In this document: positions 12,526 through 45,248 of the stretch, one piece after another
How the letters are laid out: every line of letters begins with the position of its first letter
How positions within the stretch are numbered: the stretch's first letter is position 1
From: a virus
DNA length: 64,000 bases
IMG/VR virus record: IMGVR_UViG_3300045988_152944
Reading direction: 5' to 3' (one strand)
Translations under genes and position numbers: made by a program
Notes under the pieces: generated by a model
The model's database searches: none
The model's input: the letters and a program-made list of their open reading frames with translations, nothing else
Told to the model about the DNA's origin: nothing

Positions 12526-12529
12526 TTGT

Positions 12530-26142: not shown

Positions 26143-26156
26143 TGGTTTTCTCCTAA

Positions 26157-27024: not shown

Positions 27025-27329
27025 TTTTCTTTCTCCTTAACTTTTTGATAATCTTTTACTTGATTTGCAGTCATATAACAAGTTTGTACTATATCTTCTG
27101 TTCTTTGGAAAACTGCCCAACAGTCGTGATATTCCGACCAAAATGGTTCATCAATAAATACGAGCGTTCCGTTCTCAATTTTATCTTCAAGTTCGGCAAG
27201 GCGATTTCGTATGATTTCATAGCAGATTGCGTCTGTACACCCTTGTGGGTTTCTGACATTTGGGCAATTACCACAGTTATCAATTACTAAATTACCTCGT
27301 CTTTCTGTCAATCTCTTATACTCTTTCAT
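27021..27329 (-). CDS. YKRLT/LAELEDKIE-family paralog 2 (102 aa), Cys-rich
   Basis: MKEYKRLT...CGNCPN..C..C...NRLAELEDKIENG. ATGA coupling to the upstream gene. Confidence 0.6.
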   Translation of the reverse strand: MKEYKRLTERRGNLVIDNCGNCPNVRNPQGCTDAICYEIIRNRLAELEDKIENGTLVFIDEPFWSEYHDCWAVFQRTEDIVQTCYMTANQVKDYQKVKEKEK

Positions 27330-27664
27330 TTTTCTACCTCGTATTCATCCTTTAACTTGCGAGCAACAGTCTCAGCAAACCACGCCATATCACAGTTATT
27401 TGTCCAAGAGCCTAATTTCGAAATGCTGTTCAAAACCTCTTTCGCTGTTTCCTTTTTGACTTCTTCCGCATCTCGCAATTCTCCTTTCTCGATTTTGTCC
27501 TCTAACTCGGCAAGACGATTATATATTTCGCAAAATGTGTCATAGTTCACACATTCACCATTCGGGCGATTACAACCATTAGGCTCACCATAAAAATCAC
27601 AACCACAACAAAAATCATATTGATAATCAAAGTCTTCACTTGTCAGCCTTTTATATTCTTTCAT
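27326..27664 (-). CDS. YKRLT/LAELEDKIE-family paralog 1 (112 aa), Cys-rich
   Basis: The start was moved to ATG 27664 (MKEYKRLT), preceded by GAGGAG. Motifs are CCGCDF..C..C...NRLAELEDKIEKG. Confidence 0.6.
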   Translation of the reverse strand: MKEYKRLTSEDFDYQYDFCCGCDFYGEPNGCNRPNGECVNYDTFCEIYNRLAELEDKIEKGELRDAEEVKKETAKEVLNSISKLGSWTNNCDMAWFAETVARKLKDEYEVEK

Positions 27665-27738
27665 TTTTTCATCTCCTCTACATAACACCAACTTTGCGGG
27701 GGACGAGTAAGTGGCTTACACATAACCGAGCAACAACC

Positions 27739-28374
27739 TTATTCAGAAACTTTCAGCAAGTCACGTTCTTTGATTTTAACAATAATGCGCTTGCCTTGAT
27801 GATCGTAAATTCTGACCGCCGGTACGCACACCAATCCCTCTTGCCTTGTTGTTCCTTTTTTGCAGTGCGGGCTTAATGGATTGCTACTGACAATTTTCAA
27901 CGCCTCATCAATGCCGCTCACTTTAAAGAACTCGACTGTTTCTACACCGAACTTGTCGAAGATTTCTTTGATTATGAGTTTGTCGAGATATGTGCCGTTG
28001 ACCATAACATCAAAGCCGATGAGCCTCTCTTCCCCGCCGTATAGCCCGCCTTGAATTTTACCGCCGTAACATTCCATAAACAGAATCACGAGTTTGTCGC
28101 CGAACATTTGCTCGAACACGACCTCACTATCCGCAAATTTTCCCGTAAGCGCGGCGAGAACCTCTTTCGGGAAATTTGTGCGCTCGGTTCTGCCATGAAA
28201 GGCAACTCGATGCCCGTCATACTCGACTTGAACATTCGTACCGTCGATTTTCTCGGATGCAATCCACTCGTTGTCTTTCAAATAGTCCACATATGGATTG
28301 AAAAACTCCTTGCGATAAGTCTTTGTTACATTGTCAAACTTGTATAATGTTTCGATTTTTTGATATTCTGTCAT
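27739..28374 (-). CDS. RNA ligase (Rnl2-like nucleotidyltransferase)
   Basis: The start was moved to ATG 28374, which has ATGA coupling and a GAGGTGG RBS. Motif I is EKIDGTN (KxDG). Size and motif spacing fit phage RNA ligases. Confidence 0.65.
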   Translation of the reverse strand: MTEYQKIETLYKFDNVTKTYRKEFFNPYVDYLKDNEWIASEKIDGTNVQVEYDGHRVAFHGRTERTNFPKEVLAALTGKFADSEVVFEQMFGDKLVILFMECYGGKIQGGLYGGEERLIGFDVMVNGTYLDKLIIKEIFDKFGVETVEFFKVSGIDEALKIVSSNPLSPHCKKGTTRQEGLVCVPAVRIYDHQGKRIIVKIKERDLLKVSE

Positions 28375-28553
28375 TCTTCCACCTCTGCTTGTTTGCACAC
28401 GTCGCAACGAATATACCCCCAATCATCATCTCTGATATTGCCATACGAAGTTAATTCTCGGTCAAAGAGATTGCACTTGTTGCCATATCTATGCGCACAG
28501 TCCCTGCAATTTTTCGGCACTTTGATTTTAATTTCAACTTTTATTTTCGGCAT
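28371..28553 (-). CDS. small zinc-finger protein (60 aa)
   Basis: The start was moved to ATG 28553 (MPKIKV), preceded by GGAGGTG. Motif is CRDC...C...CDVC. Confidence 0.55.
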   Translation of the reverse strand: MPKIKVEIKIKVPKNCRDCAHRYGNKCNLFDRELTSYGNIRDDDWGYIRCDVCKQAEVEE

Positions 28554-28568
28554 TTTGCACCTCCACAT

Positions 28569-28934
28569 TTAATATCTATGATTTTCATTTGCATACTTCT
28601 CCAAAAGCACGTCGATGTCATTAACAAATACATATCTATGCCATTTGCCATCCATAAAATCGTTATCGCAATAACTGTATTTTTTCAACTCGTTCAGCAC
28701 GTCGGTTTTTGCTTTTTTAACCTTCTTATCAATACATTCTGTACTTGATGCTACAAATGCCATATAACGTTGGTCGAGACTTTCATAACGTTGTTTCCAG
28801 TCGTTTTTTGCTGCCTTTAACTCGGCAATCTCTTGTTCTTGCTTGGTGATGAGGTTGTAAGCTTTTGCAAAAAAGTAGTCTCCCGTTGCTCTTGCCCCAG
28901 ATTCCAACCATTGTTTAATCTCTTCGTTCGTCAT
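28569..28934 (-). CDS. MTNEEIK-family paralog 2 (121 aa)
   Basis: It shares MTNEEIK..., LIT.QE.EI..LKA and K.AK.DVL.EL..Y with the upstream gene. ATGA coupling to the upstream gene. Confidence 0.6.
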   Translation of the reverse strand: MTNEEIKQWLESGARATGDYFFAKAYNLITKQEQEIAELKAAKNDWKQRYESLDQRYMAFVASSTECIDKKVKKAKTDVLNELKKYSYCDNDFMDGKWHRYVFVNDIDVLLEKYANENHRY

Positions 28935-29431
28935 TTCTTTAACTCCTCAATCATTCGGTCTATTTTCTCGACTACTTTATTCGCCATCGTAGATTGACCA
29001 TTTGCTTTATCTGCGCCGGTTCTAATGACAAATATCTCGTCTAATGTGAGCTCAGGATGGAACTTTCGCTCGTCGTTTATTCGTAACAAATCCTCGTTTT
29101 GCTGCTGTTGTATGCCTTTATAATTTTCACGCTCAACACAATAAGTTCTCAACTCGCTCAACACGTCGATTTTTGCTTGTTTGATTTTCTCGGTCAGTTC
29201 ATAGTTTTCGTGGTTAAGATCCCTTACGCCTCTTGCGAGTATTTCTGCATTGGTTTCCAATTGCTTAAACTCGGCTTTCAATTGTGTAATCTCTTTCTCT
29301 TGCTCGGTTATGAGTGTGAGAGCGTCTTGTTTTAGATTAACTTCACAAAATGTGAAATCTGTATATGGGCATCTTACACACCAATCTGTTTTACAGCACT
29401 CCAAGCCTTTTTTAATCTCTTCATTCGTCAT
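28931..29431 (-). CDS. MTNEEIK-family paralog 1 (166 aa)
   Basis: Same motifs as the gene at 28569-28934, plus an N-terminal Cys cluster (CCKTDWCVRCPY). ATGA coupling to the upstream gene. Confidence 0.6.
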   Translation of the reverse strand: MTNEEIKKGLECCKTDWCVRCPYTDFTFCEVNLKQDALTLITEQEKEITQLKAEFKQLETNAEILARGVRDLNHENYELTEKIKQAKIDVLSELRTYCVERENYKGIQQQQNEDLLRINDERKFHPELTLDEIFVIRTGADKANGQSTMANKVVEKIDRMIEELKK

Positions 29432-30060
29432 TCTTCTACCTCTACCAACGTGCCTCTGTCAAGGCATATGAGCGGACGAACCCCGCCACACCCGTAGTAC
29501 ACAATGTCGTCGTTCAACGAACCATCTGAATCGACACCGCGAACCAACTCATTCGTGTTTGTTGTGGCAGTTATAGTCCACTGTCGCTCGTTTATTACAG
29601 GGATATACTTTCTGTATTTCCGATATTCGTCACAAGTTAGCATTGATACATTGTCGTTACAATGTCCGTAATCCGTAAGTCCGTCATCGGTCGTTAAGTC
29701 GCGGTCGAACAACATAAGTTTATTGATGTCGGGGATAAAATCGACCACCTTAGTGGCAATGTCGCCACGTAATTGTGATTTTACCCAGTTGATTGCCTTG
29801 TTATCGAACTTACTACAAAACCACACATCTTTTGCAAGACACAGACAACCATCGGAGATAGCGTCGAGTTTGATGTACTCTTTCTCGCCCCATTTGAACG
29901 TATCACCTTGTTTTAATTCGTCAACGATTATCTTGTTTTCAAAAATCCCAGACGTCAACAAGTCCTTTGCAATAAGACCGATTTCCGCCTCGGACAGGTA
30001 AAATCTGTATTTGTCGCACGAATTGTTTATTACTGTTATTACTTTTTCAAATCTGTTCAT
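29428..30060 (-). CDS. hypothetical protein (210 aa) with a C-terminal YYGCGGVRPL motif
   Basis: The motif ...VYYGCGGVRPLICLD also occurs in the tail-region protein at 49108-50538 (YIGYGGVRPLCNLN). Confidence 0.55.
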   Translation of the reverse strand: MNRFEKVITVINNSCDKYRFYLSEAEIGLIAKDLLTSGIFENKIIVDELKQGDTFKWGEKEYIKLDAISDGCLCLAKDVWFCSKFDNKAINWVKSQLRGDIATKVVDFIPDINKLMLFDRDLTTDDGLTDYGHCNDNVSMLTCDEYRKYRKYIPVINERQWTITATTNTNELVRGVDSDGSLNDDIVYYGCGGVRPLICLDRGTLVEVEE

Positions 30061-30064
30061 TTTC

Positions 30065-30628
30065 TCACTCTATATCGCAGAGGTCATCAGCCTCTTGTTT
30101 TTGGCAGTTGTGTCTCATACGTCCTACCATAAGAAGTTCATTGAGCTCACGCAACCGTTTTTGTATTTTTTCTGCGAGTTTCTCTTGGGTATCAGAACAA
30201 CCTGAGTAATAACTTATGGGGAAATCCGTTCCGCGCTCCCAGGCGTAGTTGTTGGAAAAGACTTCAACTTTTGCACGCCTTAAAAAGTCAGGACCGTGTT
30301 TACTTCTATTGATTACCACAAGCTCAATTGCGTTGTCGTACCCTACCCATTCCCAGTATGTTCCTTTCGGGAATGTTATACAAGCATCAAGGAAATCACT
30401 GATAGTATCGAAATTAAAATATTCTTGCAACGAGCCTACTGAAACAATGTCGTCCTTATTCTCGTCCCAAAACTCTTCAACCGTATATCTTTTCCGTGTC
30501 ATTTGTACTGCGTAGTTGTGTTTAGGACAGTGCATAAAATCGCACGTTTCACAATCACACTTGGTAAAATTGATTGTCCTACCAATGTCAAATTTTTGAT
30601 TTTTTACCGGTTCAAATGCTAATTTCAT
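30065..30628 (-). CDS. hypothetical Cys-rich protein (187 aa)
   Basis: The ORF carries CDCETCDFMHCPKH. No SD lies close to the ATG; the nearest AAGGAGG is about 55 nt upstream, inside a hairpin. Confidence 0.5.
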   Translation of the reverse strand: MKLAFEPVKNQKFDIGRTINFTKCDCETCDFMHCPKHNYAVQMTRKRYTVEEFWDENKDDIVSVGSLQEYFNFDTISDFLDACITFPKGTYWEWVGYDNAIELVVINRSKHGPDFLRRAKVEVFSNNYAWERGTDFPISYYSGCSDTQEKLAEKIQKRLRELNELLMVGRMRHNCQKQEADDLCDIE

Positions 30629-30975
30629 AACGCTTTTGCCAAGGAAACCACAATCCCTTTAGGGTTGTGGAGGAATTGGCAACCTCCTTGTTTGTTTAAT
30701 ACATACACCATTGCTTTTACAGCCTCCTGTATGTTAGAGTGGTTACTCCACGACAAGGTTATTCAAAGGTTTGTCGTATGCAACATTGTTCCTACCCATC
30801 AGAACTGTTTAATCACATACCGCAGAGCGTAAGACTGGAGAGTACATCCTACGGTGCCTATATATTCTTTGATAACGTAGTGCTCGAAACACTTAGTCTG
30901 ATCAACTAGTGGACTTGATTACTCCTCAAGCCCACGCCTATTTATGGACTGGGTAGTTGACATGCAACTCCTTAC
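30629..30975 (-). ncRNA. unclassified ~347-nt highly structured non-coding region
   Basis: No ORF of 60 aa or more. Many hairpins are present, for example 30648-30670 and GGAGG/CCTCC at 30669-30687. A group-I R-like motif GATCAGACTAAGTG lies at 30890-30903, and an 8-codon mini-ORF with an AAGGAG SD lies at 30938-30963. Confidence 0.35.
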
Positions 30976-31428
30976 TCATTTTTTATATTCGTCCAACAGC
31001 TCGTCAATTTTCGCTTTCACTTCATCTGCAAATACTTTTCTAACTGTGTTGAAAACACTATATTTTTTATTTTGAGTCGTATCGAATGTAAATTTTTCTT
31101 CACAAGCTTTTAACAAATAAGCATTTTCTTTTTTAAGCCGCGTAATTTCAGCTTGCATTCTAGCGACTTCATCGCGCCGTTTCTGCATTAAATAAGTAGC
31201 AAAACCTATTGTATAATCGTCAACAGCATCGCACGTCAAGTCGTCATCTTGTTCTTCTGATGCAGGCACAACCGCTTTGTACTCCTCATTTTCACTCAAA
31301 AATTCAATTGCTTGTTGAATACATACATATGCCCTTTCTCTGGCATAATCGGTCAGCTCGTCGTCGCTATCCCAGTCAACTTTGTCTTTGATTTCTTCAA
31401 GTTTCTTAATCATTTTTTGCCTTGTCAT
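30976..31428 (-). CDS. hypothetical coiled-coil protein (150 aa)
   Basis: ATGA coupling to the upstream gene. Confidence 0.6.
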   Translation of the reverse strand: MTRQKMIKKLEEIKDKVDWDSDDELTDYARERAYVCIQQAIEFLSENEEYKAVVPASEEQDDDLTCDAVDDYTIGFATYLMQKRRDEVARMQAEITRLKKENAYLLKACEEKFTFDTTQNKKYSVFNTVRKVFADEVKAKIDELLDEYKK

Positions 31429-31811
31429 TTTCTCAACTCCTTTAAAAGTTTGTCGACCTCGTTTTCACAATCCACTACAGCGGAGTGCCCATTCCAATCG
31501 TACATACAAATATAGTGTTGCTCTTTTGCTTCGAGTCGTGTTTTCAACTTATCCGCAAAGTCTTGTACAGCTTGGAGCATTTCGATTCCAAACAGTGCTT
31601 TGATCTCGTGTTCCAACCGCTCGTGTTGTTCAAGCTTTTTTTGCAACTCGTCGATTTCTCGGCGTTGAGATTTCAGTCTTTCCCACGCTCTGTTATAATC
31701 TTGTTGAAGTTGCATGTTAAGCGTTTGCAAACGAAACACCTCGGCCTCTGCTTCGTCCCATTGGTTAATAATGTTGTCAAAATCTCTCTGTTGTTGAGTC
31801 TGTTTTGTCAT
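31425..31811 (-). CDS. hypothetical coiled-coil protein (128 aa)
   Basis: ATGA coupling to the upstream gene. Confidence 0.6.
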   Translation of the reverse strand: MTKQTQQQRDFDNIINQWDEAEAEVFRLQTLNMQLQQDYNRAWERLKSQRREIDELQKKLEQHERLEHEIKALFGIEMLQAVQDFADKLKTRLEAKEQHYICMYDWNGHSAVVDCENEVDKLLKELRK

Positions 31812-32059
31812 AATGTCTCTCCAAATGTTGAATTTAGCATATTTTCAATGTCCTTCATTGCGGCCGCGTTACGCGCTTGACCTGCTTTAATTTCTTCATC
31901 GGTCAAAATCATCTTGGTCAAATTCTTTTCGGTTTCTTTGAAGCATTGTCCCAGTTGACGACTGTGGCATTGACAACCAGTGCCACCAAGCCAACAACAG
32001 CCTATATTTCTTCTCAATTCATCGAAGACTTCTTGTTTTGTCGGGTTTACAACCTGCAT
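31808..32059 (-). CDS. hypothetical small protein (83 aa)
   Basis: The start was moved to ATG 32059 (MQVVNPT), preceded by GGAGG with a 5-nt spacer. The ORF-track start at 32089 would be only about 4 nt from the predicted transcription start site. Confidence 0.55.
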   Translation of the reverse strand: MQVVNPTKQEVFDELRRNIGCCWLGGTGCQCHSRQLGQCFKETEKNLTKMILTDEEIKAGQARNAAAMKDIENMLNSTFGETL

Positions 32060-32099
32060 ACGTACCTCCATCGATGAAATAGTCTTCATCTATGGTTTG

Positions 32100-32188: not shown

Positions 32189-33088
32189 CTAAAACACTTT
32201 ACGAAATTTATATTTGTTAATATCGTATAAGCTATAGTGCCATTTTGCTGTTGAGGTGTTATCCCTTTGTAAAACACCTCCTTTCACCGCTAAAGTTCCG
32301 TCTATTCGAATAACCACGTGGGTGGTATATAAAGCGACGGTGTTGTTTGAACTATCAAGGTTTGTGTTGGTGTAAACACTTTGAGCAATTTGGCCTGAGC
32401 CATCCCAATGTACCAACGTTGTGCCATAAAACGCCAAAAGTTCATAAGTGTCCAAAACCGTAACTTCATAGGTCCCGGCTTCTGTCACCTTTGAATCGGC
32501 ACCATTTGTGCCAGTAGTGATAGTCACCCACTCTCCCACCTGCGGTATATCTTCCTCTAGCGCAATTTCTTTTGTTACCGTTGTTTCCCCACTCTTCACC
32601 TCCGCCTTGGGTCTGGGGTCTGAAGTTTTTATAATAGTGGGAGAGTTTGCAGAACCAAAATACTCATTTCTACCGTTAAATTCATACCAGTTTGTACCAT
32701 TGGCGGACTGTGCCGTATCGCTCTGAAGCCCCTTGGCCATTGTGGCAGTTTTAGCCGTTGGTTCACCACTCTCAAATATGTCTGTAATTTTGTACTCACC
32801 GATGTTGGTCGACACTGTTGTCGCTGTTGTCGCTTCTGTGGCCATAGGACATTCCTTAATTGTCCAGCCAACCGTTGACCCCGAGTCGGCAACCAACACT
32901 TTGTTATCGTCATCCGCACCGCTTGGGGCAATTGATTTAGTGACAGTAAACAAATCTTTATCAGGTATGCCCGTTCCGACATATAAAGCCCCTTTTGTTG
33001 CCAAAGTGTCTTTGCTCTCCATTTTGCGTCTCATTTTACTGGCTTCTAAACCACTGTCAATAGTTACGCCATCGTTAATTGTCGCCAT
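32189..33088 (-). CDS. hypothetical virion or fibre-associated protein (299 aa)
   Basis: GGAGG RBS and Thr/Ser/Gly-rich beta-type composition. It is the last gene of the cassette. Confidence 0.55.
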   Translation of the reverse strand: MATINDGVTIDSGLEASKMRRKMESKDTLATKGALYVGTGIPDKDLFTVTKSIAPSGADDDNKVLVADSGSTVGWTIKECPMATEATTATTVSTNIGEYKITDIFESGEPTAKTATMAKGLQSDTAQSANGTNWYEFNGRNEYFGSANSPTIIKTSDPRPKAEVKSGETTVTKEIALEEDIPQVGEWVTITTGTNGADSKVTEAGTYEVTVLDTYELLAFYGTTLVHWDGSGQIAQSVYTNTNLDSSNNTVALYTTHVVIRIDGTLAVKGGVLQRDNTSTAKWHYSLYDINKYKFRKVF

Positions 33089-34934: not shown

Positions 34935-36062
34935 TTATTTCCCCAATTTTGCTTTATATATTTTTGACATTTCAGCTTCGAGCTTGGTGAGAGCACACCT
35001 TTGAAATGGCTTATTGATATCGCCGTACATATAATAACTATCCGCCGGACAAACACTGCAAACGCTCGAACATTCACAATCAAAACACTCTTTTTTGTAA
35101 TTACTAAAATTGCGACACTGCATTTGTTCTAAAAACGCAGTATTGGATATGCCCGTGTTGATATTACCAATAGGCACCTTCTTCGCCCCTTGGCTATCCT
35201 CACAGAATCTAAAGCAAATATAAATATCACCATTCCAATCAATTGCGAAGCCTGCTTTTGTCGCCAATCCACAAGTGCATATTTGCAAGTCTTTGGTATG
35301 TTCAACTTCTAATGCCGAAAGCGCCAATGGAGTGTTGGTAACTTTAATCCACTCAATTGTTTTTAACAGTTGCTGTCTATACTCTTTTAAGAACTTTTCA
35401 TCTGGGATGTAGTTGACATCAATACTGTGTTTAAGACGTGTGAAGCCTAGTGAAGCCAGATACTTACAACTCTCAAAAAAGTATTGAATGTTGTCAGGCG
35501 CGAATGTCAACTTTGTGGTTGTTTCGTAGCCAAAATCAACAAAATGTTGTTTAACGGCTTTTTCGACTTTGTCAAACACCGAATTGCCGTTTTTATCTCG
35601 TCGGCACTTGTCAAAACACTCGCGAGGTCCATCGATAGTTATCGCAAAGAGTAATTTATCTTTATATTTCTGAATGAAATCTTGGACATCTTTGTTGAAA
35701 TAAGTCGTGCCGTTAGTGTCAATAGCAATACAGCTACGAGACACAAGATCATAAAATTTGTGCTCGAGGCACTGGCGGAAAAAGTAATCACATATGTCAT
35801 TTACTATTGGCATATATAGAGTTACTTCTCCGCCCAGAAAAGTTAGCATCACGTTGTCAAAATCATCGCGCACCAACGCGTCGAAAGGTGTCGACTTGCC
35901 GAGTTTTCGGTCGATTAAACAGTCGATCACCTTTTTCGCGTCTTCGAGTTTAATGATTTGCTTTGCGTCACAATGTTGTTGGTAACAATAAGTACACCGC
36001 AAATTACAATTTGAAGTAATGTGAAATGTAATTGTTACCTGTTTATCTAATCGTTCGTCCAT
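34935..36062 (-). CDS. radical SAM enzyme with a SPASM-like C-terminal Cys-rich domain (anSME / Cys-rich-peptide maturase-like)
   Basis: The 375-aa product has CNLRCTYC (CxxxCxxC) at residues 18-25 and a FLGGE SAM motif. The C-terminus carries CTCG...NGDIYIC and CFDCECSSVCSVC...C auxiliary-cluster motifs. Confidence 0.8.
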   Translation of the reverse strand: MDERLDKQVTITFHITSNCNLRCTYCYQQHCDAKQIIKLEDAKKVIDCLIDRKLGKSTPFDALVRDDFDNVMLTFLGGEVTLYMPIVNDICDYFFRQCLEHKFYDLVSRSCIAIDTNGTTYFNKDVQDFIQKYKDKLLFAITIDGPRECFDKCRRDKNGNSVFDKVEKAVKQHFVDFGYETTTKLTFAPDNIQYFFESCKYLASLGFTRLKHSIDVNYIPDEKFLKEYRQQLLKTIEWIKVTNTPLALSALEVEHTKDLQICTCGLATKAGFAIDWNGDIYICFRFCEDSQGAKKVPIGNINTGISNTAFLEQMQCRNFSNYKKECFDCECSSVCSVCPADSYYMYGDINKPFQRCALTKLEAEMSKIYKAKLGK

Positions 36063-36364
36063 ACCAACACTTCTCTTTTTATAATTAAGCCATCGTATTG
36101 TGGTTCGATGCGCACCATGTTGGGATAATAAAATTGCAATAAATAAAACAACTCTTCTGTTTTTTTACGATATGCCTCTAACGTATTTGTGTAAAATTTA
36201 AAAGCATCGTCGAGCGTTTGTTGAGTCACACCCAGTTGTTGTTTGGTTGCGTCTGTTAGTTTAAACAACCAATTGTAGTTATTGACACTATCGCTTAATT
36301 GTGTTGTTAGACGCAATAACTCATTATAGATATTATCTGTTAATACATAAGTAATCGACTGCAT
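36047..36364 (-). CDS. small helical protein (105 aa) between the propeller and radical SAM genes
   Basis: GGGAG RBS. Its 3' end overlaps the radical SAM gene start by 16 nt, consistent with translational coupling. Confidence 0.6.
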   Translation of the reverse strand: MQSITYVLTDNIYNELLRLTTQLSDSVNNYNWLFKLTDATKQQLGVTQQTLDDAFKFYTNTLEAYRKKTEELFYLLQFYYPNMVRIEPQYDGLIIKREVLVWTND

Positions 36365-36378
36365 AATGTTCTCCCAAA

Positions 36379-38415
36379 TTAAGACTCACACAGACCAGAA
36401 AACGTTGATGTCCCACCACATACAGCAATTTGCTTCAAATTTGTGCTACACCGAATATTACAAATGTTGTGACGTGCTGAGGTGTTACACGACGAACAAG
36501 ATACAGAGTGGCTCACATCAATGGTGAGTTGTCCATCCTCGGTCACCGTGTAGGATTGTCCAAAAATTCTATAACTGTCGAATCCGCTCGAATAACTTTG
36601 TGCCTTAACATACAATGTGTCACCATAATACCCAACTATTTGCTGGCCATCAGCGGACGTCGACGCTACATTTATCACATACGAGCTTTCACCACCGGAA
36701 GAATCGTAAACCGCACTCGGTTCTTGCCCTTTTGCATTACTCGAACGATAAATGATGACATTAATATTAGAATTGGGAGTCCCAGTTACTTTGATGGTAA
36801 TAGTATATGGTTTAACCCATTGACAAGTATCACCTTTGTAGAAATAATGGATGGGGATTGGGGGTTCGAGCTGATATTGAGCGTCATTGTAGGAATAGTA
36901 CATATTAGTGCCATCGGTCCAAACGTATGCACCCACAAACTCTGTGGCACCCTCCCATGTCTGCGCATTCCAGGCGGATGTGGCTTTGTGCAGTTGATAT
37001 ATACCAGAATAATATATACTAACCCCATCGGTCCACACATTAGAACCATAAAAATTAGTCAACCCACTCCACGTTTTCTGATTCCAAGTCGAAGTGGATT
37101 GATCCAACTGGTACTGATCCGTACCCAAGGAGTAATATATATTCTCACCATCGTTCCAAATGTGTCTTCCATACATCCCTGTAAAATTAAACCACGTTTT
37201 TTGAGTCCACGTAGACGTGCTGGTATTAAGCTGATACTGGTCTGTACCGCCCGAATAGTAAGTTATAGCCCCATTGGACCAGATGTGATCACCCGTAATT
37301 GATGTGAGCTCTCCGTTCCAGGTTTTAGGACTCCAAGTCGATGTTGCTTTGTCTAATTGATATTGGTGTTGATAAAACGAATAATAAATATCATCTCCCA
37401 CAGCCCAAATATACATCCCGGTAAATTCTGTTAATCCTGTCCAACTCTTTTTGTTCCAAATTAACGAGGTTTTGTCCAGTTGATATTGAGTCGTGTTATA
37501 TGAGTAATAAGTGTTATTTCCATCTGTCCAAATATGTTGTCCCACGTTAATTTTGAACTCTTCGTACCAAGTTGTTTCGTTCCAAGTAGAGGTGGTTTTG
37601 TCAAGTTGATATTGTTTGGTTACATACGAATAATAAAAATTGCCACCGCTCGTCCAGATAGTGGCGCCGGAAACTTTGGTGAACCCATTCCACGTTTTGG
37701 GATTCCAAGTCGAAGTAGATTTATCTAACTGGTACTGGTCGTTAGACGAAGAGTAATATATATTTTCTCCGTCGGTCCATACCCCGCTTCCGGAAACTTT
37801 GGTGAACCCATTCCATGTTTTGGTGCTCCAAGTAAACGTGGATTTATCCAATTGATAGTGAGTGGGAGCGTTGAGGCCATCATAAAAAGAATAATAAATA
37901 TTAGTGCCGTCGGTCCAAACATAAGCGCCATTAAAATTTGTTAGCCCATTCCAAGTTTTTGAAGTCCACGTTGAAGTGGCTTTATCCAATTGATATTGGG
38001 CTGTGCCTAATGAGTAATATATATTTCCACCATCGGTCCAAGGCCCATAGGCTCCATCCAAATTGGTAAATCCACTCCAGTTTTTTTTATTCCAAGTCGA
38101 TGTGGTTTTATCTAATTGATATTGTTCGGCGTCACTGGAATAATATATGTTTTCTCCATCGGTCCAAATCTTTGCGCCATAAAACTTTGTCAATCCTCCC
38201 CAAGTCTTTTTAACCCAAACAAACGTTGTTTGATCTAATTGATAATGTATTGTGTCCCAGGAATAGTAAACATTATTGCCGTCGGTCCATATATTTTCCC
38301 CGCTTATTCCTTCTCTATCCCATGGCGTTTTCCACATAATTGGTGTCACTGTACCAACCATATTATTATTCGCCTCAATGCTTTTTATTAAAACGTTATT
38401 TGCTTCTAATGCCAT
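36379..38415 (-). CDS. tail-fibre or receptor-binding protein with ~12 tandem propeller-type repeats and a 6-Cys C-terminal tail
   Basis: The 678-aa product repeats the unit W(T)DG.NIYYS...QYQLDK.TSTW..KTW.G.T.F.G about 12 times. The last 41 residues are SCSSCNTSARHNICNIRCSTNLKQIAVCGGTSTFSGLCES. Confidence 0.75.
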   Translation of the reverse strand: MALEANNVLIKSIEANNNMVGTVTPIMWKTPWDREGISGENIWTDGNNVYYSWDTIHYQLDQTTFVWVKKTWGGLTKFYGAKIWTDGENIYYSSDAEQYQLDKTTSTWNKKNWSGFTNLDGAYGPWTDGGNIYYSLGTAQYQLDKATSTWTSKTWNGLTNFNGAYVWTDGTNIYYSFYDGLNAPTHYQLDKSTFTWSTKTWNGFTKVSGSGVWTDGENIYYSSSNDQYQLDKSTSTWNPKTWNGFTKVSGATIWTSGGNFYYSYVTKQYQLDKTTSTWNETTWYEEFKINVGQHIWTDGNNTYYSYNTTQYQLDKTSLIWNKKSWTGLTEFTGMYIWAVGDDIYYSFYQHQYQLDKATSTWSPKTWNGELTSITGDHIWSNGAITYYSGGTDQYQLNTSTSTWTQKTWFNFTGMYGRHIWNDGENIYYSLGTDQYQLDQSTSTWNQKTWSGLTNFYGSNVWTDGVSIYYSGIYQLHKATSAWNAQTWEGATEFVGAYVWTDGTNMYYSYNDAQYQLEPPIPIHYFYKGDTCQWVKPYTITIKVTGTPNSNINVIIYRSSNAKGQEPSAVYDSSGGESSYVINVASTSADGQQIVGYYGDTLYVKAQSYSSGFDSYRIFGQSYTVTEDGQLTIDVSHSVSCSSCNTSARHNICNIRCSTNLKQIAVCGGTSTFSGLCES

Positions 38416-39071: not shown

Positions 39072-40565
39072 TTATCCAATGATTACCACTTTAAATGTTT
39101 GTGCGGTAGTGGGGGCGGTCGCAAACAACAATTTCACTTTGTTATTCATGGTGTAGGTGTCTACCATAACCAGCTCGTCGACCGTATCTGCTCCAACCGT
39201 TTGATTCTTGAGATAAACCTGAACGCTAACATCGGCACCCAGTGTATGAGCAACATCAAATGAAGTTTTGCTACCATCCCCCGTGATAGTTTGCACGACT
39301 TTTGTGGAATAATTTTCACTCGATGCAGCGGTTACTCGACCTTTTTCATTAACCGTCACAGTGTTATATGTGCCCGCCGTTACGCCAGTATTCGACAGTG
39401 TGACATTAATATCTTTGTTTGCACTTCCGTCGAAAGTAGTCGAACCAGTTGCATCTCCTGTGAGTGCAATTGTTCGCGCTGTCTTAAGTTTATCGGCCGT
39501 TCCCGCTTCGTTGACTCTGGTAATACTCACATCACCTATTTGACCATTGACACTCGTGACAGCATCGGTGTTATCAATTTTTTCCCACCTAGTTCCTGTC
39601 GAAATAATCCAGTCACCCGTCTCAAAACCAATCCCCGCAAACGTCCCGCTTGCTTGACAAATGAAATAAACACCTTCCATGTCTTGCCAACCATATGTGT
39701 TGGCTGCTGTGCTTGTTACAGAGTTTACAATCGCAATCGAAGTTGCTGTTATGTTCTTTTTTGTTTTTAAGCTATCGGAGGGTGAAATAGTGGTTGTAGT
39801 TGCAACCGTGGAAGCATTACCACCATACATTACTTGCCCAAGCAAATAATCAGGCAATTGGCTTGTAATAATCTTACTGTTGGCATCCAGTGACGCAACA
39901 CCACTCGCTTTACCTTTCCCCAAAGTTGCGGGAGTGATAACTTTTGTAGTGTCAGTACCATTGTTTACTTCGTCTTGAGTAGCCAACTGAACAACGCCTT
40001 TCACTGTTGTAGAAGCATTAACACCACTCAAAGTAAAAGAATTGCCTGGTGTCGTACTACCGCCTGTGATACCATTAGAGGTCTGAATTGTGACTTTTGC
40101 AGAATCTATCGCACTTTGTTTGGCCGCCGCAAGTTGTTTTGCATTGATAGCACGAGTAGTATCGGTACCCGCTGTGGCTTCAGCATCAGTAGCTAATTCA
40201 ATAACACCCTTGGCTGAATCTGTTGCATCAGGCAGAGAGATTTGATGGGTGTGACTATTTGCTGTAACGCCATTAGAACCGTAAGTGTTAGAGCCAGAGC
40301 CCGAAGCTGAAGGAGTACCCAAGCTAATAGTAACCGTGTCTGTTCCTGAACTGGTCAAACCATTGCCCGCTACAATGGATTTCACCGCTTCCGCTGTGAT
40401 ACTTACCCACGCGGTTCCATTGTGGTATCTATACCCATTATCTGTGGTGTTGTAATAAATTTGACCAGCTTTTCCCGACGAGGGATCGCTAGCCAAGTTT
40501 TGAATTACAGCATTTTCCAGTTGGTTTTGTTGTAAATTTAATCCGTTAAACCATTTTTGACTCAT
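39072..40565 (-). CDS. tail fibre protein (497 aa)
   Basis: AAGGAG RBS. It contains the repeated fibre motifs KGVIELATDAEATAGTDTTRAINAKQL and KGVVQLATQDEVNNGTDTTKVITPATL. Confidence 0.7.
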   Translation of the reverse strand: MSQKWFNGLNLQQNQLENAVIQNLASDPSSGKAGQIYYNTTDNGYRYHNGTAWVSITAEAVKSIVAGNGLTSSGTDTVTISLGTPSASGSGSNTYGSNGVTANSHTHQISLPDATDSAKGVIELATDAEATAGTDTTRAINAKQLAAAKQSAIDSAKVTIQTSNGITGGSTTPGNSFTLSGVNASTTVKGVVQLATQDEVNNGTDTTKVITPATLGKGKASGVASLDANSKIITSQLPDYLLGQVMYGGNASTVATTTTISPSDSLKTKKNITATSIAIVNSVTSTAANTYGWQDMEGVYFICQASGTFAGIGFETGDWIISTGTRWEKIDNTDAVTSVNGQIGDVSITRVNEAGTADKLKTARTIALTGDATGSTTFDGSANKDINVTLSNTGVTAGTYNTVTVNEKGRVTAASSENYSTKVVQTITGDGSKTSFDVAHTLGADVSVQVYLKNQTVGADTVDELVMVDTYTMNNKVKLLFATAPTTAQTFKVVIIG

Positions 40566-41162: not shown

Positions 41163-42422
41163 CTAGATTCGTGATGCAAATGGTAAATTGCGTACGTTTG
41201 ATACTGTAATCGACATTGCGCCCGAATAGTCCAAACTACACGATACGCCCTGTAACAAAAACCTCTCGTGGTCTAATCCGAAGAACTCATCCGTGATTTC
41301 GATCAAATTATTAACCGACAGCAGAGGATTAAAACTAATATTTGTACTTACTGACGACTTGAGAATCAATTGTTTTCTCAGCTCATATTTTGCCCTGTCG
41401 TCAGCCAAACTTTGCGACGTAATGTTACTATCGTTGACAACCGGCCCAGTTCTGTAACCAATTCGTTGATAGCAAAGCGGTGAAGTTGGATCGTCATTTT
41501 CTGCAATTGCAGTATAAACTTTTCCATCCACTGTTGCGCCTATAACAACGACACGGTTGACAATGCTATTAACCTGTAATCCAAACGACAGCCCTGAAAA
41601 ATCTCCATTGCTGTCAGTTAATTCACAGATAACAGGTTTGTCTATATCCAGCGTGGTTTCTTGTGTCGGTAATATTGTTAAATTACCATTAGAATTATAA
41701 AACATTTCTGCTGACAACTGGTTAGCCAATTCCAGCAAAATACTACCGAGAGTCTCACCCGCAGATTTGCTAATTTTAGATTGAGTTTTCTTCCCTTTAA
41801 AACTTGAGTGATAAATAATGGGGGCCGGATCCAAAGGGTATCCATTACCCTTTGAACCGAGCAAAATCCCTCTAATTGTATCTTCAATGTCTGTTCCTGT
41901 AGGAATCTCATAACTGGTCTCAAGTGTACCAGGTTTCCCCTCGAAAATCGAGAACTTGTCACCAGTCTGTACGGCGACGGTTTGGGAGTCTGGATCTTCC
42001 GACGGTGTCAGTGACGAGGCCACATAAACACCGCTGCGTTTCCAGATAATGCTCCCGTCATCTTTTTCAATACCCAAGTCGAGGGCGAATTTAGTTTCCG
42101 CCCATAGGGTGTTGACCGAGGGGGTATATTTTTTATCCGTATTATAGAGTGAAAACGATAACGAACGACGTTGACCATTTTGATATTGTTCACTATAAGA
42201 CGAACCACTTAATAGAATATCTTCATCGGGAATTTGATAATCGACTGTTTCGTCGGGATGAAGAAGGAAAATTCTATATCGGGGGCGCAAAATCGGAGAG
42301 TTGATTAAATCGTTAAGCTCTGGGATACTCACATTAGAATCTAAGTAAGTATCCCCACTCATAACACTTAATGATAATACATCTCCGCTCGCTAAACCAA
42401 TAGTTTTTATAATTCGAGCCAT
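41163..42422 (-). CDS. baseplate or tail structural protein (419 aa)
   Basis: The start was moved to ATG 42422 (MARIIKT), preceded by AGGAGGTG. The ORF-track extension to 42578 overlaps the upstream gene in another frame. Confidence 0.6.
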   Translation of the reverse strand: MARIIKTIGLASGDVLSLSVMSGDTYLDSNVSIPELNDLINSPILRPRYRIFLLHPDETVDYQIPDEDILLSGSSYSEQYQNGQRRSLSFSLYNTDKKYTPSVNTLWAETKFALDLGIEKDDGSIIWKRSGVYVASSLTPSEDPDSQTVAVQTGDKFSIFEGKPGTLETSYEIPTGTDIEDTIRGILLGSKGNGYPLDPAPIIYHSSFKGKKTQSKISKSAGETLGSILLELANQLSAEMFYNSNGNLTILPTQETTLDIDKPVICELTDSNGDFSGLSFGLQVNSIVNRVVVIGATVDGKVYTAIAENDDPTSPLCYQRIGYRTGPVVNDSNITSQSLADDRAKYELRKQLILKSSVSTNISFNPLLSVNNLIEITDEFFGLDHERFLLQGVSCSLDYSGAMSITVSNVRNLPFASRI

Positions 42423-42453
42423 TTTGCACCTCCTAAAGAATTGAAGAAAAATT

Positions 42454-43506
42454 TTAATTGTCGCCCGTAATAATTGTATCATCCAGTGAGGCAATTTGTG
42501 TCCAACTGAAATTGATTTTGTCGGGCTGATAACCGATGTTGTCGGTTGGTTTGTTTGAACCGCTGGTGATTTGCACAATGAAGGCTTGCCCTTTGCGGTC
42601 TTTGATTAATTTTGGATTTTTCGACGCCACAACTTTACGCCATTCTTGCAACATCATAACCTTTTGGTTGGTAGTTAAATGAGATTTCCAAGGAAGTCTT
42701 TCCAGATAACCTTGTGCATACGGAATCTTCTCCTCCTCGGTTAAACATCCCAAATTGATAATTTCGCTGCCCAAATAACAACTTACAGAACTGGAAATGT
42801 TATTCTGGCGGCCGTGAGCGAACCTCGGGAACTGACCAAGCGTCTTTTGTTCTGTTTTAGAAATGTTCTGCGCTTGATCGCCTGATTCTACGTCATATTT
42901 GAACAACCAAACGTTCGTCGGGTTTGCTATGTAAGCTTTTTTGATAGCTGGGCTGGCCGTGTCTATTTGAACCGGCGTGAGCTCTGTTAAGCTCCAGCAA
43001 TCCCAATCTACTTTTATTGGTTGTGCCAGTTTTTGAATCGCAGTTGGATTACCTTCGGCAGAGTAAGCAATATATTGATATTCTCGCCCAGCGGTGACGT
43101 TGAAGTCGTACACCGTCGTTTGAGTAGTTCCAATCGCCACCGGTGAATAGTACGTAATACCATCGGCCACCTCTTTTTTGTAAATCGAATAAGAGTTACC
43201 TGGAGTACCAGGAGCTATTTTATATACCCCATAATCGGCTTCTGCATGGAAAGTCTCGTCTGTGATTATCAAATAGCCAATTTCGCCATTGTCGTTAAAC
43301 AACTTAGTATAACTTGTAGGCGTTTGCACGTTTGTGGGAAAAGTTTCGCCGTCCCACTGTTTTTGGTAAAAATACGACACCTTTTGTTTGGTGTCATAGC
43401 CAATGGTATAAACTCCTGTATCTGCATTTGGTATATCGTACGTCTCAGACTCTGCGGAGCGACCAGAGAACGAAATTTCACAATATCTGTTTAATCCTTC
43501 TTTCAT
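42454..43506 (-). CDS. tail or baseplate structural protein (350 aa)
   Basis: ATGA coupling to the upstream gene. Confidence 0.55.
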   Translation of the reverse strand: MKEGLNRYCEISFSGRSAESETYDIPNADTGVYTIGYDTKQKVSYFYQKQWDGETFPTNVQTPTSYTKLFNDNGEIGYLIITDETFHAEADYGVYKIAPGTPGNSYSIYKKEVADGITYYSPVAIGTTQTTVYDFNVTAGREYQYIAYSAEGNPTAIQKLAQPIKVDWDCWSLTELTPVQIDTASPAIKKAYIANPTNVWLFKYDVESGDQAQNISKTEQKTLGQFPRFAHGRQNNISSSVSCYLGSEIINLGCLTEEEKIPYAQGYLERLPWKSHLTTNQKVMMLQEWRKVVASKNPKLIKDRKGQAFIVQITSGSNKPTDNIGYQPDKINFSWTQIASLDDTIITGDN

Positions 43507-45248
43507 GATTGCCCCTCCTGTTCTTGTGTCTGTGTAACCTTGAGCGTAATATACGTCGAACCGTCGGGCTTTTTAAGGTACCAAGTTCCGGAATTGCCGT
43601 CAGTGCCGTCCTCGTATGAGAGGGTACAAGTTTCCAATCCTGTATATAAATCGTCAATATTTTTCATATAACAATCAATCTTGAGTGTTTTATTAGTTAA
43701 TTGTGGATGACGTTTGACTTGTGCCATATGGGTATCAGTGTCTTTGTTCCAACCTTCTACCCAGAATTTGGTATCGTCCCATGTGGCGGGCTCTTGGGTT
43801 TGCACTACGCGAGGCCCCGCCGGAGTATCGATTTGAACCCGTTTTAGGTCGGTCCAGACGTTGTATTGCCCGCCTGTGTTGGTCGGCTTCTCCTTCTGCA
43901 AACAACATATTCCAATTTCTCTCTTTGCTTTGGTGTTAATTAAGTCGTTGATGTTGGTATAGCTTATGAGTTCCTCACCCGTGTTTGGGTCAAACGGATG
44001 GGAATAATTTAAATATTCAAGCTCTGCGTTGCCATCCTTGGTTAAATCGCCCGTTGTGTCATCAGCCCAAGATTTAGGTTGCAAATAAAACGCTTCCGTA
44101 GTTGTTGTGGCTAGTGGGAACAAAGTTGATCCAACGCAATCAAGCGTAGTGGAGCTGCTCTTAATCGTGCATTTGAGACGGTTGCGCAGGGGGTTAAAGG
44201 AAGCAACTGGTTTATAACAAAGGCGACCTCCGATAGGCAAGTACATGTCCGACGGATTATAACTACCGGCCCAATACCACAAACCCGCGTACCTCGTGTC
44301 GCTCCAAGCACCGCCAACAGCAAGAACGGAGCTACTGACGTCCGTGTAGTCGCAAAAATAAGTTGTGTTGCCACTTCTGGCGATTTCTGTTACGTATTGT
44401 ATAAGTGGGTTGCGTCCGAGCGGTTCAACCTTTTTAATCCAGCCGTCACCCACCGAGCAGTTACCTTGATAAACGTACGGTGCATCAATTTTGCCAGCGA
44501 TATAAGACACAGGGTCTGTGCAAACGTAAACTTTGTCAGAGGAGAAAGATATACCGTCGCACCAAGTAAAAATATTACCCCACAAATTCTCAATACCGCG
44601 ATACTTACACGCATGTTTGCCATCGGCATTGCTTTCTGGTGAACCGGACGGAGTGATAACGCTGTCTGTGGCACCCGTATTTGTTGCTGCCGAGTTGTTA
44701 TTCACATAGCCGTACATAATCGACTGGCAATTGGTGGTTTTCATTTCGATCAACCATAGCTCCTTAATAATCAAGTCAATTAAAAAATCGTATTGTTGAT
44801 AACCTGTGCCGTTTGCTTTACACGCCGTGCGGAAATTATCGCAAGTAATCTTTGTAAGTACGGTTTGCCCGCTCTTGGAATAAACGCGCTCCGACGACCC
44901 ACTTCCCTCATATTTGCCAACCATTACATAGTCAATCTCTTTTTCTCCGATTTTGAACAAAGTGTCAAAGCCCTCATGTTTCGTTCCTGACAATTGGTGC
45001 TTATAGGTGCCATCTACGTTTTTCGTGATTTTGCTGTAAAACTTTGGGATTTTAACAAAAACATTCCCAAATTTGTCTGTCACCTCTTCAATATCGCTCC
45101 AAGGATAGCAACTATCAAAATCGCTTGTGATTTCCGAGGTGCCAACTGTTATATTCAATCCCACTGCATCATCCACACGTATAAGCGCATTGGGATCTTG
45201 AGAACCAACAAGGTTTACGCCGTAAATTTTTTCTATATTTCCTTTCAT
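43503..45248 (-). CDS. tail protein with an FGE/C-type-lectin-like ligand-binding domain (581 aa)
   Basis: ENLWGNIFTWCDG and VGGAWSDTRYAGLWYWAGSYNPSDMYLPIGGRLCY resemble the NxxGNVWEW / GGxW...AG...G(F/G)R pattern of the FGE-sulfatase (CLec) fold. Confidence 0.6.
   Translation of the reverse strand: MKGNIEKIYGVNLVGSQDPNALIRVDDAVGLNITVGTSEITSDFDSCYPWSDIEEVTDKFGNVFVKIPKFYSKITKNVDGTYKHQLSGTKHEGFDTLFKIGEKEIDYVMVGKYEGSGSSERVYSKSGQTVLTKITCDNFRTACKANGTGYQQYDFLIDLIIKELWLIEMKTTNCQSIMYGYVNNNSAATNTGATDSVITPSGSPESNADGKHACKYRGIENLWGNIFTWCDGISFSSDKVYVCTDPVSYIAGKIDAPYVYQGNCSVGDGWIKKVEPLGRNPLIQYVTEIARSGNTTYFCDYTDVSSSVLAVGGAWSDTRYAGLWYWAGSYNPSDMYLPIGGRLCYKPVASFNPLRNRLKCTIKSSSTTLDCVGSTLFPLATTTTEAFYLQPKSWADDTTGDLTKDGNAELEYLNYSHPFDPNTGEELISYTNINDLINTKAKREIGICCLQKEKPTNTGGQYNVWTDLKRVQIDTPAGPRVVQTQEPATWDDTKFWVEGWNKDTDTHMAQVKRHPQLTNKTLKIDCYMKNIDDLYTGLETCTLSYEDGTDGNSGTWYLKKPDGSTYITLKVTQTQEQEGQS

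Follow-up and report, generated by a model that had tools for sequence, protein, structure and literature searches.

A candidate radical SAM maturation module for the Cys-rich tail of a predicted phage tail-fibre protein

Within the fibre cluster of a phage, a three-gene module was found in which a radical SAM/SPASM enzyme and a 105-aa partner protein probably modify the six-Cys C-terminal tail of a 678-aa protein, thioethers being the likeliest products. The synteny between the enzyme and a Cys-rich protein is deep and near-universal. No radical SAM maturation system of a phage fibre type was found in the literature.

Results and discussion

The analysed DNA (the window) is a stretch of 64,000 nucleotides. 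The four open reading frames of the locus are where a first-pass annotation of this DNA had placed them, all on the minus strand (Table 1). In gene order, the 678-aa gene comes after those for the tape measure, the tail proteins and a fibre, and the module is surrounded by tail and fibre genes. The genome also carries an anaerobic ribonucleotide reductase, NrdD, with its activase, and an anaerobic host is therefore implied. The phage itself is an uncultivated gut phage.

Table 1 Coordinates of the genes and protein segments at the locus, in window positions
Feature	Position	Strand	Basis
678-aa protein gene, predicted substrate	36379..38415	-	ORF; position in the tail/fibre module
N-terminal ~20 residues (MALxANxVLIKS...)	38356..38415	-	Conserved across the window protein and L001-L007, with a variable body behind
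12 tandem repeats, predicted beta-propeller blades, residues 43 to about 515	36871..38289	-	Repeat register, AF2, Foldseek
All-beta domain with 'YYGD' motif, residues ~530-636	36508..36828	-	Conservation and AF2; directly before the tail
Cys/Ser/Thr/Asn-rich C-terminal tail, residues 637-678	36382..36507	-	Predicted core (modified) region
105-aa accessory protein gene	36047..36364	-	ORF, translationally coupled to the enzyme gene
375-aa radical SAM/SPASM enzyme gene, without RRE	34935..36062	-	ORF and profile matches
Gly-rich protein gene, 335 aa, PF21722	33906..34913	-	ORF; clade-specific neighbour

The enzyme had been described from its motifs as a member of the SPASM/anSME-type family, in which SCIFF enzymes were also counted. 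These motifs (CNLRCTYC at residue 19, GDIYIC at 278 and CFDCECSSVCSVC at 326) are all present, and the CX3CX2C motif, C19-x3-C23-x2-C26, is invariant in 11 homologs. A SPASM domain is recognised by the pattern C-x9-15-G-x4-C ... C-x2-C-x5-C-x2/3-C ... C, with seven cysteines and two auxiliary clusters. The corresponding set in the enzyme, C264, G278-x4-C283, C326, C329, C335, C338 and C356, is likewise invariant in the 11 homologs, so that all seven auxiliary-cluster cysteines are retained on alignment. The SPASM model TIGR04085 scored 31.2 bits (cutoff 27); PF04055 scored 28.8 bits, just under its cutoff of 29.5, and full-length NCBIfam radical SAM models reached 1e-48.

That value belongs to the best NCBIfam match, TIGR04115 (CXXX-repeat maturase; 166.7 bits, cutoff 350), which was followed by PapB (NF047865; 1e-37, 129.8 bits, cutoff 340). 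Further top matches were the Cys-peptide maturases SCIFF and CcpM, the SCIFF maturase model TIGR03974 scoring 73.8 bits against a cutoff of 425. The anSME model TIGR03942 scored 58.5 bits (cutoff 349), and the anSME structure 4K36 was matched over residues 16-187 only (1.8e-5). The closest solved structure was CteB (5WGG, residues 98-446 only; 2e-13). The enzyme thus clusters with peptide maturases and not with non-peptide families. Its assignment as a SPASM peptide maturase stands, with the correction that the nearest relatives are the CXXX-repeat maturases, not SCIFF or anSME enzymes. TIGR04115 scores form a continuous gradient, from 625 bits for a bacterial enzyme through 390 and 350 bits for phage enzymes to 167 bits for the window enzyme. 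As the enzyme scores under the curated cutoffs of all the named families, their chemistry is not confidently transferable to it.

Enzyme and Cys-rich region were found together in 7/7 close loci, in 6/6 loci sampled at 33-41% enzyme identity and in 78/80 IMG/VR loci, which bears out the pairing that the first-pass annotation had proposed from a single genome. In the seven close relatives (L001-L007, enzymes 93-94% identical) the upstream protein ranges from 178 to 612 aa, and all seven retain a beta-domain of about 95 aa and the six-Cys tail, with the cysteines invariant. At 33-41% identity, a Cys-rich-tailed protein, a protein of about 100 aa and an overlapping radical SAM gene recur in four loci (L008, L010, L012 and L160), in which the tailed proteins have unrelated bodies; a Cys-rich-tailed protein is present in L158 as well. 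The IMG/VR count refers to Cys-dense ORFs (at least 6 Cys per 45 aa) no more than 3 kb from the enzyme, for which the background elsewhere is about 0.25 per 6 kb. Genuine CXXX arrays adjoin many of the more distant phage enzyme homologs, and the Cys spacing differs between clades, from short tails to CXXX arrays of as many as 92 Cys; the place next to the enzyme is constant. At least 230 IMG/VR phage contigs, together with Erwinia jumbo phages and Phass-1, carry a system of this enzyme and Cys-rich-protein kind. The bacterial locus L013 is a curated CXXX target/maturase system (TIGR04119 245 bits, TIGR04116 90 bits). A genuine SCIFF pair (L020) is quite different in appearance from the phage module.

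The 678-aa protein is built mainly from repeats of 41-42 aa, each predicted by AF2 to form four beta-strands. Foldseek matches were beta-propellers without exception, the best being the tandem propellers BT4663/BT4673 (E = 8e-14), for an AF2 model of moderate confidence that was based on a 4-sequence alignment. The relatives have about 0 to 11 copies of the repeat, and with the window included the length of the body runs from 178 to 678 aa among phages whose enzymes are 93-94% identical. Near-identical phages keep the N-terminal 20 aa, probably an attachment segment, and the C-terminal 140 aa, and the number of propeller repeats that separate these two ends ranges from 0 to 12. Location in a structural module, a conserved attachment end and an exchangeable body are features of fibres, and together the gene position, modular variability and lectin-like propeller fold suggest that the protein is a tail fibre or receptor-binding protein, which would be present in virions.

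The tail might instead be modified on a protein outside the virion: an assembly factor, a host-surface or decoy protein, or a giant-leader carrier that releases a phage-encoded RiPP. Pfam and PHROG searches gave the 678-aa protein no family and no structural annotation, and RiPP precursors with large leader domains (Nif11/NHLP-type) are a known precedent. However, no protease or exporter gene was found within the module by Pfam and PHROG annotation, the gene lies between fibre-like genes, and a conserved N-terminus with a swappable body is typical of receptor-binding proteins. Homologous systems, moreover, adjoin Peptidase_S74 fibre proteins, Phage_fiber_2, Mtd_N and tape-measure genes. A non-virion role is therefore considered improbable, and the protein is treated below as a predicted fibre.

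The first-pass annotation had drawn attention to the cysteines at the C-terminus of this protein, and six of the seven (residues 531, 640, 643, 652, 656, 666 and 676) do fall within the last 39 residues. When seven Cys were placed at random in 678 residues, about 2e-5 of trials put at least six of them into any one 39-aa stretch. Densities of at least 5 Cys per 45 aa are also reached in about ten other real small ORFs of the genome; as Cys-dense stretches are not rare there, weight was placed on conservation and synteny rather than on Cys density. Among the eight close sequences the six tail cysteines are invariant and only 12/36 of the non-Cys positions are. The spacing is C-x2-C-x8-C-x3-C-x9-C-x9-C-x2-end, so that the final Cys has a fixed C-x-x-COOH position within the close clade, and P0110, which is 47% identical, retains the spacing. 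No NCBIfam or SCIFF-peptide model matched the tail. In the domain directly before it, 80/98 positions are invariant across the same eight sequences. AF2 predicted this domain to be all-beta (pLDDT 60-80), and it can be aligned to the equivalent region of the proteins in L008, L010 and L012, which show no relationship in the rest of their bodies. These observations suggest that the tail is the substrate of the enzyme and make the beta-domain a candidate site for docking, the part otherwise played by a leader peptide.

The tail could alternatively be a structural element that binds a metal or Fe-S or forms disulfides, or it could supply the enzyme with a cluster or electrons, the enzyme itself acting on the Gly-rich protein, a small molecule or some other target. 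Its first four cysteines (C-x2-C-x8-C-x3-C) could make a zinc knuckle and the genome encodes many Zn-finger-like Cys-rich proteins. The gene for the Gly-rich protein lies next to that of the enzyme, to which a GrrM-type model gave a weak match (1.8e-7). Against this, the Cys spacing changes from clade to clade and the enzyme adjacency does not, AF2 left the tail unstructured (pLDDT 33-36), and no other model scored as well as those for peptide maturases, which led GrrM by over 25 orders of magnitude. The Gly-rich protein, which had been put forward as an alternative substrate, has matches to Gly_rich_2 (PF21722, 1e-11) and phrog_863 ('tail fiber assembly') and is probably another fibre-module protein. 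It is kept in L001-L007 but lies outside the conserved module: the downstream genes of L008 and L010 are unrelated to it and are not Gly-rich. As it is not conserved beyond the close clade it is an unlikely substrate, and that suggestion was dropped. Of the readings considered here, one in which the tail is no substrate is the least probable.

The remaining gene of the module encodes the 105-aa protein. Its 3' end overlaps the start of the enzyme gene by 16 nt in the window, and it has the same place, with an overlap of 8-16 nt, in 8/8 loci of the clade; homologs are present in L008, L010, L012 and L160. The translational coupling noted earlier is upheld and is conserved, and this protein may be a recognition partner of the enzyme. 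AF2 modelled it with high confidence (pLDDT 94) as a strand, a long helical hairpin (helix, short helix, helix) and a beta-hairpin. No match was obtained with Pfam, NCBIfam or PHROG, nor with Foldseek against the PDB at E <= 1e-3. An RRE is defined by membership of the PqqD/RRE sequence family or by a winged-helix fold of three strands then three helices; the 105-aa protein has no match to that family and a different topology, and was ruled out as an RRE.

Comparison with known systems

The top-scoring family for the phage enzyme belongs to the CXXX system (TIGR04114/TIGR04117 target, TIGR04115, TIGR04119 and TIGR04116). Like the phage enzyme, which aligns to model positions 3-335 of 359, TIGR04115 maturases have no N-terminal peptide-recognition (RRE) domain, and in both systems a Cys-rich target lies beside the enzyme along with an accessory gene of about 90-110 aa. 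Unlike CXXX targets, that of the phage is a tail of 42 aa in which the spacing is not CXXX, carried on a 678-aa folded propeller protein, and the CXXX system is found on bacterial chromosomes whereas the window system is in a phage tail module. Neither of the companions TIGR04119 and TIGR04116 was found in the window by NCBIfam search, and hhalign detected no homology between the 105-aa family and the TIGR04116 protein of L013 (probability 0.1%). The CXXX system was defined in silico and no characterised reaction of TIGR04115 was found in the literature; the family is not known to have been studied biochemically.

CteB makes a Cys-Thr thioether. Its SCIFF substrate has six Cys in about 40-45 residues, as does the phage tail, and the match between the two enzymes spans the whole catalytic and SPASM region. 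CteB, however, has an N-terminal RRE domain of about 95 residues that the phage enzyme does not, and its substrate is a free peptide of about 45 aa rather than the tail of a protein. PapB, of the freyrasin (PapA) ranthipeptide system, is also a radical SAM/SPASM thioether former, and its targets are repeated Cys motifs; activity on peptides that lack a leader, and at the C-terminal end of peptides, has been shown (PMC12715619, PMC12373016). It differs from the phage enzyme in having an RRE and in requiring a carboxylate as acceptor, which Asp, Glu or the C-terminus can provide. The phage tail offers no conserved Asp/Glu for this role: none of its Cys is followed by a conserved acidic residue.

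The same enzyme and substrate might be joined by another chemistry, such as formylglycine formation from Cys or Ser (anSME-like), epimerisation, or C-C or other cross-links. In addition to the sub-cutoff scores, the lack of a characterised reaction for the nearest family and the missing acidic acceptors, the anSME and cyclophane-forming models also gave significant, though weaker, matches. The strongest similarities, on the other hand, are consistently to enzymes that form thioethers on Cys or are predicted to mature Cys repeats (TIGR04115, PapB, SCIFF/CteB, CcpM), and Cys itself is the invariant feature of the substrates. A different reaction is thus rather unlikely, and thioether formation is the likeliest on account of the homology with the CteB/PapB clade; by this argument from sequence, the tail probably acquires thioether cross-links.

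Virions are known to stabilise themselves covalently, as in the isopeptide 'chainmail' of the HK97 capsid, and Peptidase_S74 acts as a C-terminal intramolecular chaperone of tail fibres. The resemblance to the phage module, which lies in a conserved fibre C-terminal element or a toughening cross-link, is a functional analogy only, with no sequence relationship. HK97 and Peptidase_S74 are autocatalytic, whereas the phage module has genes for a dedicated radical enzyme, which is O2-sensitive, and for an accessory protein.

Proposed mechanism and significance

In the proposed mechanism, the enzyme and its translationally coupled partner would be made in the cytoplasm of the anaerobic host, where the enzyme would act post-translationally on the unstructured six-Cys tail of the beta-propeller protein. 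Recognition may take place via the folded beta-domain upstream of the tail, the 105-aa partner, or both. SAM-dependent H-atom abstraction would then lead to Cys-S to carbon thioether cross-links, and the product would be a redox- and protease-resistant staple at the C-terminus of the fibre, either intra-chain or between subunits.

More broadly, it is conceivable, though we put this forward only tentatively, that phages of anaerobes 'weld' their tail-fibre and tail-tip proteins in this way, a radical SAM/SPASM enzyme and a new small partner that is not an RRE putting non-reducible thioethers into Cys-rich tails or arrays. If true, this would be RiPP chemistry on a full-size structural protein, and for the first time a radical enzyme would be seen to modify a virus particle post-translationally. 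Radical SAM peptide chemistry has so far been tied to natural products that are small and secreted; here it would serve to mature a virion protein of large size. The same kind of system is present in hundreds of related phages. Anaerobe phages would gain a disulfide-like stabilisation that lasts in the reducing environment of the gut, and an explanation would be at hand for a widespread phage family of unknown function (phrog_6085 and the radical SAM PHROGs). A leader-free cross-linking enzyme directed to a protein tail, together with its new accessory protein, would also be attractive for protein stapling. The phage module gives the TIGR04115 family a tractable test case, and a natural mini-version exists in the 178-aa protein of L002, which contains little beyond the conserved domain and the tail.

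Results and discussion

ORF calling placed the four minus-strand genes of the region at the positions given in the first-pass annotation. These genes lie among those of phage tail components, and a Hoc-like protein is also encoded upstream of the module.

Genes of the radical SAM module and neighbouring tail genes in the window
Feature	Coordinates	Strand	Remarks
678-aa protein gene	38415-36379	minus	ORF
105-aa protein gene	36364-36047	minus	ORF
375-aa enzyme gene	36062-34935	minus	ORF; start overlaps 105-aa gene by 16 nt
335-aa Gly-rich protein gene	34913-33906	minus	ORF
Tape measure	55737-60008		upstream of module
Tail protein	43503-45248		upstream of module
Tail protein	41163-42578		upstream of module
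Fibre protein	39072-40565		upstream of module
Second fibre-like gene	32189-33088		downstream of enzyme; N-terminus conserved, C-terminus variable

Homologous modules adjoin Peptidase_S74 fibre proteins, Phage_fiber_2, Mtd_N and tape-measure genes. A megablast search of the 8-kb region against GenBank phages gave no match, hence no isolate relative. In the window and seven close-clade loci (L001-L007), the product of the second fibre-like gene has a conserved N-terminus (MAIINDGVTIDSGLEA... or MAIIGEKITLDK...), and its C-termini of 278-476 aa are wholly exchanged between near-identical phages. Swappable receptor-binding-type genes are therefore found on both sides of the enzyme.

The radical SAM/SPASM enzyme

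The Pfam Radical_SAM match of the 375-aa enzyme was borderline (28.8 bits, cutoff 29.5) and the SPASM domain model scored above its cutoff (31.2 vs 27 bits). Searching NCBIfam gave full-length matches to peptide maturases, the first being TIGR04115, the family acting on CXXX-repeat targets (1e-48), and the second the ranthipeptide maturase PapB (1e-37), followed by the QhpD, Nif11, SCIFF and CcpM models. No equivalog cutoff was reached (TIGR04115, 167 vs 350 bits). The closest solved structure was the SCIFF thioether synthase CteB (5WGG, 2e-13); the alignment runs only from CteB residue 98 to 446, and the N-terminal recognition domain of CteB is therefore missing from the phage enzyme.

When 11 homologs of 33-51% identity were aligned, C19, C23 and C26 were invariant, as were the seven SPASM cysteines C264, C283, C326, C329, C335, C338 and C356. 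Scored against TIGR04115, the homologs form an unbroken gradient: a bacterial member reaches 625 bits, phage members follow at 431, 390, 350 and 301 bits, and the clade of the window lies at 224-167 bits. TIGR04115 ranked first and PapB second for the scored members of this gradient, the order being reversed for the Erwinia phage enzyme. The maturase matches, the invariant cysteines and the score gradient together identify the enzyme, at the level of sequence, as a divergent phage branch of the CXXX-repeat/PapB group. This placement led to rejection of a non-peptide radical SAM enzyme, and assignment as an anSME was also rejected (58 bits).

The predicted substrate

Six of the seven cysteines of the 678-aa protein are near its C-terminus (residues 640, 643, 652, 656, 666 and 676), as the first reading of the sequence had noticed, and random placement of seven cysteines yields such clustering in only about 2e-5 of trials. 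Cysteine density alone was nevertheless discarded as a statistic, as several small Zn-finger-like proteins in the window are equally Cys-dense. About ten such ORFs are present in this genome, and the case for the tail therefore rests on conservation and synteny. A run of proteins of 65-166 aa with 5-6 Cys per 45 aa in CxxC-type, Zn-finger-like spacing occupies 25519-32089 (minus strand).

Seven IMG/VR contigs of 85-141 kb carry an enzyme 93-94% identical to that of the window, with the same gene order in all seven. The upstream protein varies greatly in length (178, 388, 388, 425, 428, 429 and 612 aa, vs 678 aa in the window), and what is kept is an N-terminus of about 20 aa, a beta-domain of about 95 aa with a 'YYGD' motif, and the tail pattern C-x2-C-x8-C-x3-C-x9-C-x9-C-x2-end. 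Across the eight sequences the six tail cysteines are invariant, as against just 12 of the 36 other tail positions; in the preceding domain 80 of 98 positions are invariant. When the C-terminal module was searched exhaustively against 1.8 billion representative proteins, just ten matches were obtained. Among these, P0110 (47% identical) has near-identical cysteine spacing, C-x3-C-x8-C-x3-C-x9-C-x9-C-x2, with very different sequence between the cysteines. The 178-aa protein of one close relative (L002, 9157-9693) is a natural minimal substrate candidate consisting of N-terminal anchor, beta-domain and six-Cys tail without propeller repeats, and would suit biochemical tests ideally.

The body of the 678-aa protein consists of twelve repeats of 41-42 aa. 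An AF2 model built on a shallow alignment (mean pLDDT 66) showed four strands in each repeat; in it, residues 530-638 make up an all-beta domain and the tail is left unstructured (pLDDT 33-36). The best Foldseek matches of this model were tandem beta-propellers (BT4663/BT4673, 8e-14), with further matches to PorZ, GH74 enzymes and Kelch domains. The modelled strands and the propeller matches support a propeller at blade level, its global arrangement being uncertain.

Distant relatives and co-occurrence

On contigs where the enzyme is 33-41% identical, differing protein bodies again end in Cys/Ser/Thr-rich tails. These proteins have 186 aa in L008 (VSCNAACSTSASSSCKTAICS...), 203 aa in L010 (RTCGTCSATTTCGSSSSCSTCSAVTTCG...), 477 aa in L012, with three CxxCSAVxTC units, and 464 aa in L160, with a Cys/Ser/Thr-rich tail of similar type; that of L158 is very large. 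Most of these loci have the tailed protein, then a protein of 101-112 aa, then an overlapping enzyme gene. The beta-domain before the tail can be aligned across the proteins of the window, L008, L010 and L012. Directly upstream of the module in L008 are an IS605/TnpB (Cas12f-like) element and a 1487-aa LRR_5 protein (594-1688 and 2650-7113). Some phages that carry the system seem to have reassigned stop codons: the large Cys-tailed protein of L158 (3-3950) has five in-frame stops under table 11, and in Phass-1, annotated with code 15, the enzyme is immediately followed by a 174-aa protein whose C-terminus is Cys-rich.

At 28-32% enzyme identity the neighbouring proteins are long CXXX arrays that match TIGR04114/TIGR04117; L016 has 49 Cys in its array, L014 has 41 and L017 has 22. 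The bacterial relative L013 has the complete curated system of target, TIGR04115, TIGR04119 and TIGR04116. The phage array proteins belong to phrog_6085, annotated as 'unknown function'. In Erwinia jumbo phages, too, two radical SAM genes are preceded by CXXX ORFs that lack annotation. In Erwinia phage vB_EamM_Caitlin (KX397365; 2122-3163 of the locus) these are phrog_6085 ORFs of 127 and 153 aa with 20-21 Cys each, unannotated or mis-annotated, just upstream of the adjacent radical SAM genes gp172 and gp171. As a cultivated jumbo phage, Caitlin could be an experimental model for the family. A classical SCIFF pair, a 47-aa peptide (...GGCGECQTSCQSACKTSCTVGNQTCEHCK) and a 451-aa RRE-containing maturase, was seen on a 91-kb 'Bacteriophage sp.' record (MT835472; 4486-6077 of the locus), which could represent bacterial DNA or a RiPP cluster carried by a prophage.

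Co-occurrence of the enzyme with a Cys-rich tail in relatives had been set as a test beforehand. A profile scan of IMG/VR gave 230 relatives, and among the best 80 loci an ORF with at least 6 Cys per 45 aa was present on the same strand within 3 kb of the enzyme in 78, the other two being truncated contigs. The background of such ORFs elsewhere in the 80 loci is about 0.25 per 6 kb. Together with the tails at the distant loci, this shows clearly that the two do co-occur. Scanning species-representative bacterial genomes revealed just generic SPASM maturases (20-31% identity) and no prophage copy.

The Gly-rich protein, which had been proposed as an alternative substrate, is conserved solely in the close clade. 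It is not kept beside enzyme homologs outside that clade and was rejected as an unlikely substrate.

The accessory protein

The 105-aa protein had no match in Pfam, NCBIfam or PHROG. A single-sequence search gave close homologs alone; with a profile, it could also be linked to a 94-aa family and to the small proteins encoded at loci of the L010 and L012 types. The AF2 model was confident (pLDDT 94) and consisted of one strand, a long helical hairpin and a beta-hairpin; Foldseek found nothing significant for it, with an RRE-like fold absent. The family scans and fold search thus exclude an RRE, and remote homology with TIGR04116 was unsupported (hhalign probability 0.1%). An HMM of the accessory family detected it in 8 of the 80 viral loci, confined to the clade of the window, and in all eight the gene overlaps the enzyme start by 8-16 nt. 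Other clades usually have an ORF of 95-145 aa at this position with undetectable homology, so the partner is not claimed as universal. A 195-aa protein with a Cys-rich N-terminus in L159 was considered as a 'Rosetta-stone' fusion of substrate and accessory protein, but this was not supported (hhalign probability <1%, BLASTP E = 39). From its coupling to the enzyme gene, we infer that the 105-aa protein is an adaptor or chaperone.

Proposed modification

The evidence best supports a model in which the enzyme and its 105-aa partner would modify the fibre-module protein at its disordered Cys tail, with the conserved beta-domain standing in for a leader peptide. There is precedent for leader-independent and C-terminal action in PapB (PMC12715619, PMC12373016). 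By homology the chemistry would most likely be thioether cross-linking. Conserved acidic acceptors are missing from the tail in the eight sequences, which makes the acceptor residues, and even the type of reaction, less certain.

The system of the window is of the radical SAM/SPASM Cys-peptide maturase kind, its predicted substrate being the tail of a large virion-module protein; it has a new partner protein and no RRE. Full-text literature searching turned up neither a phage structural protein matured by a radical SAM enzyme nor any biochemical work on TIGR04115. The original in-silico description is reportedly that of Haft and Basu in 2011. Interest in the system is high, conditional on experimental proof of modification and of virion incorporation.

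Anaerobic setting and other features of the window

The phage encodes the anaerobic ribonucleotide reductase NrdD and an activase-like protein, consistent with a host that is anaerobic and so permits an O2-labile enzyme to function. NrdD (115-3508, minus strand, 968 aa) has a LAGLIDADG homing-endonuclease-like domain inserted at residues ~307-379, suggesting an intein or endonuclease insertion. The activase-like protein that follows it is a 165-aa Fer4_12 protein, and the pair indicate a host that is anaerobic, whether strictly or facultatively. Five tRNA genes (Pro-TGG, Leu-TAG, two Gln-TTG and Trp-CCA) are located at 3791-5064 (minus strand). The DnaE-type DNA polymerase III alpha (10951-14917, minus strand) is seemingly split into two overlapping ORFs, one of 795 aa with PHP, pol3-alpha and finger domains and one of 535 aa with HHH_6; possible causes are gene splitting, a programmed frameshift and an artefact of sequencing.
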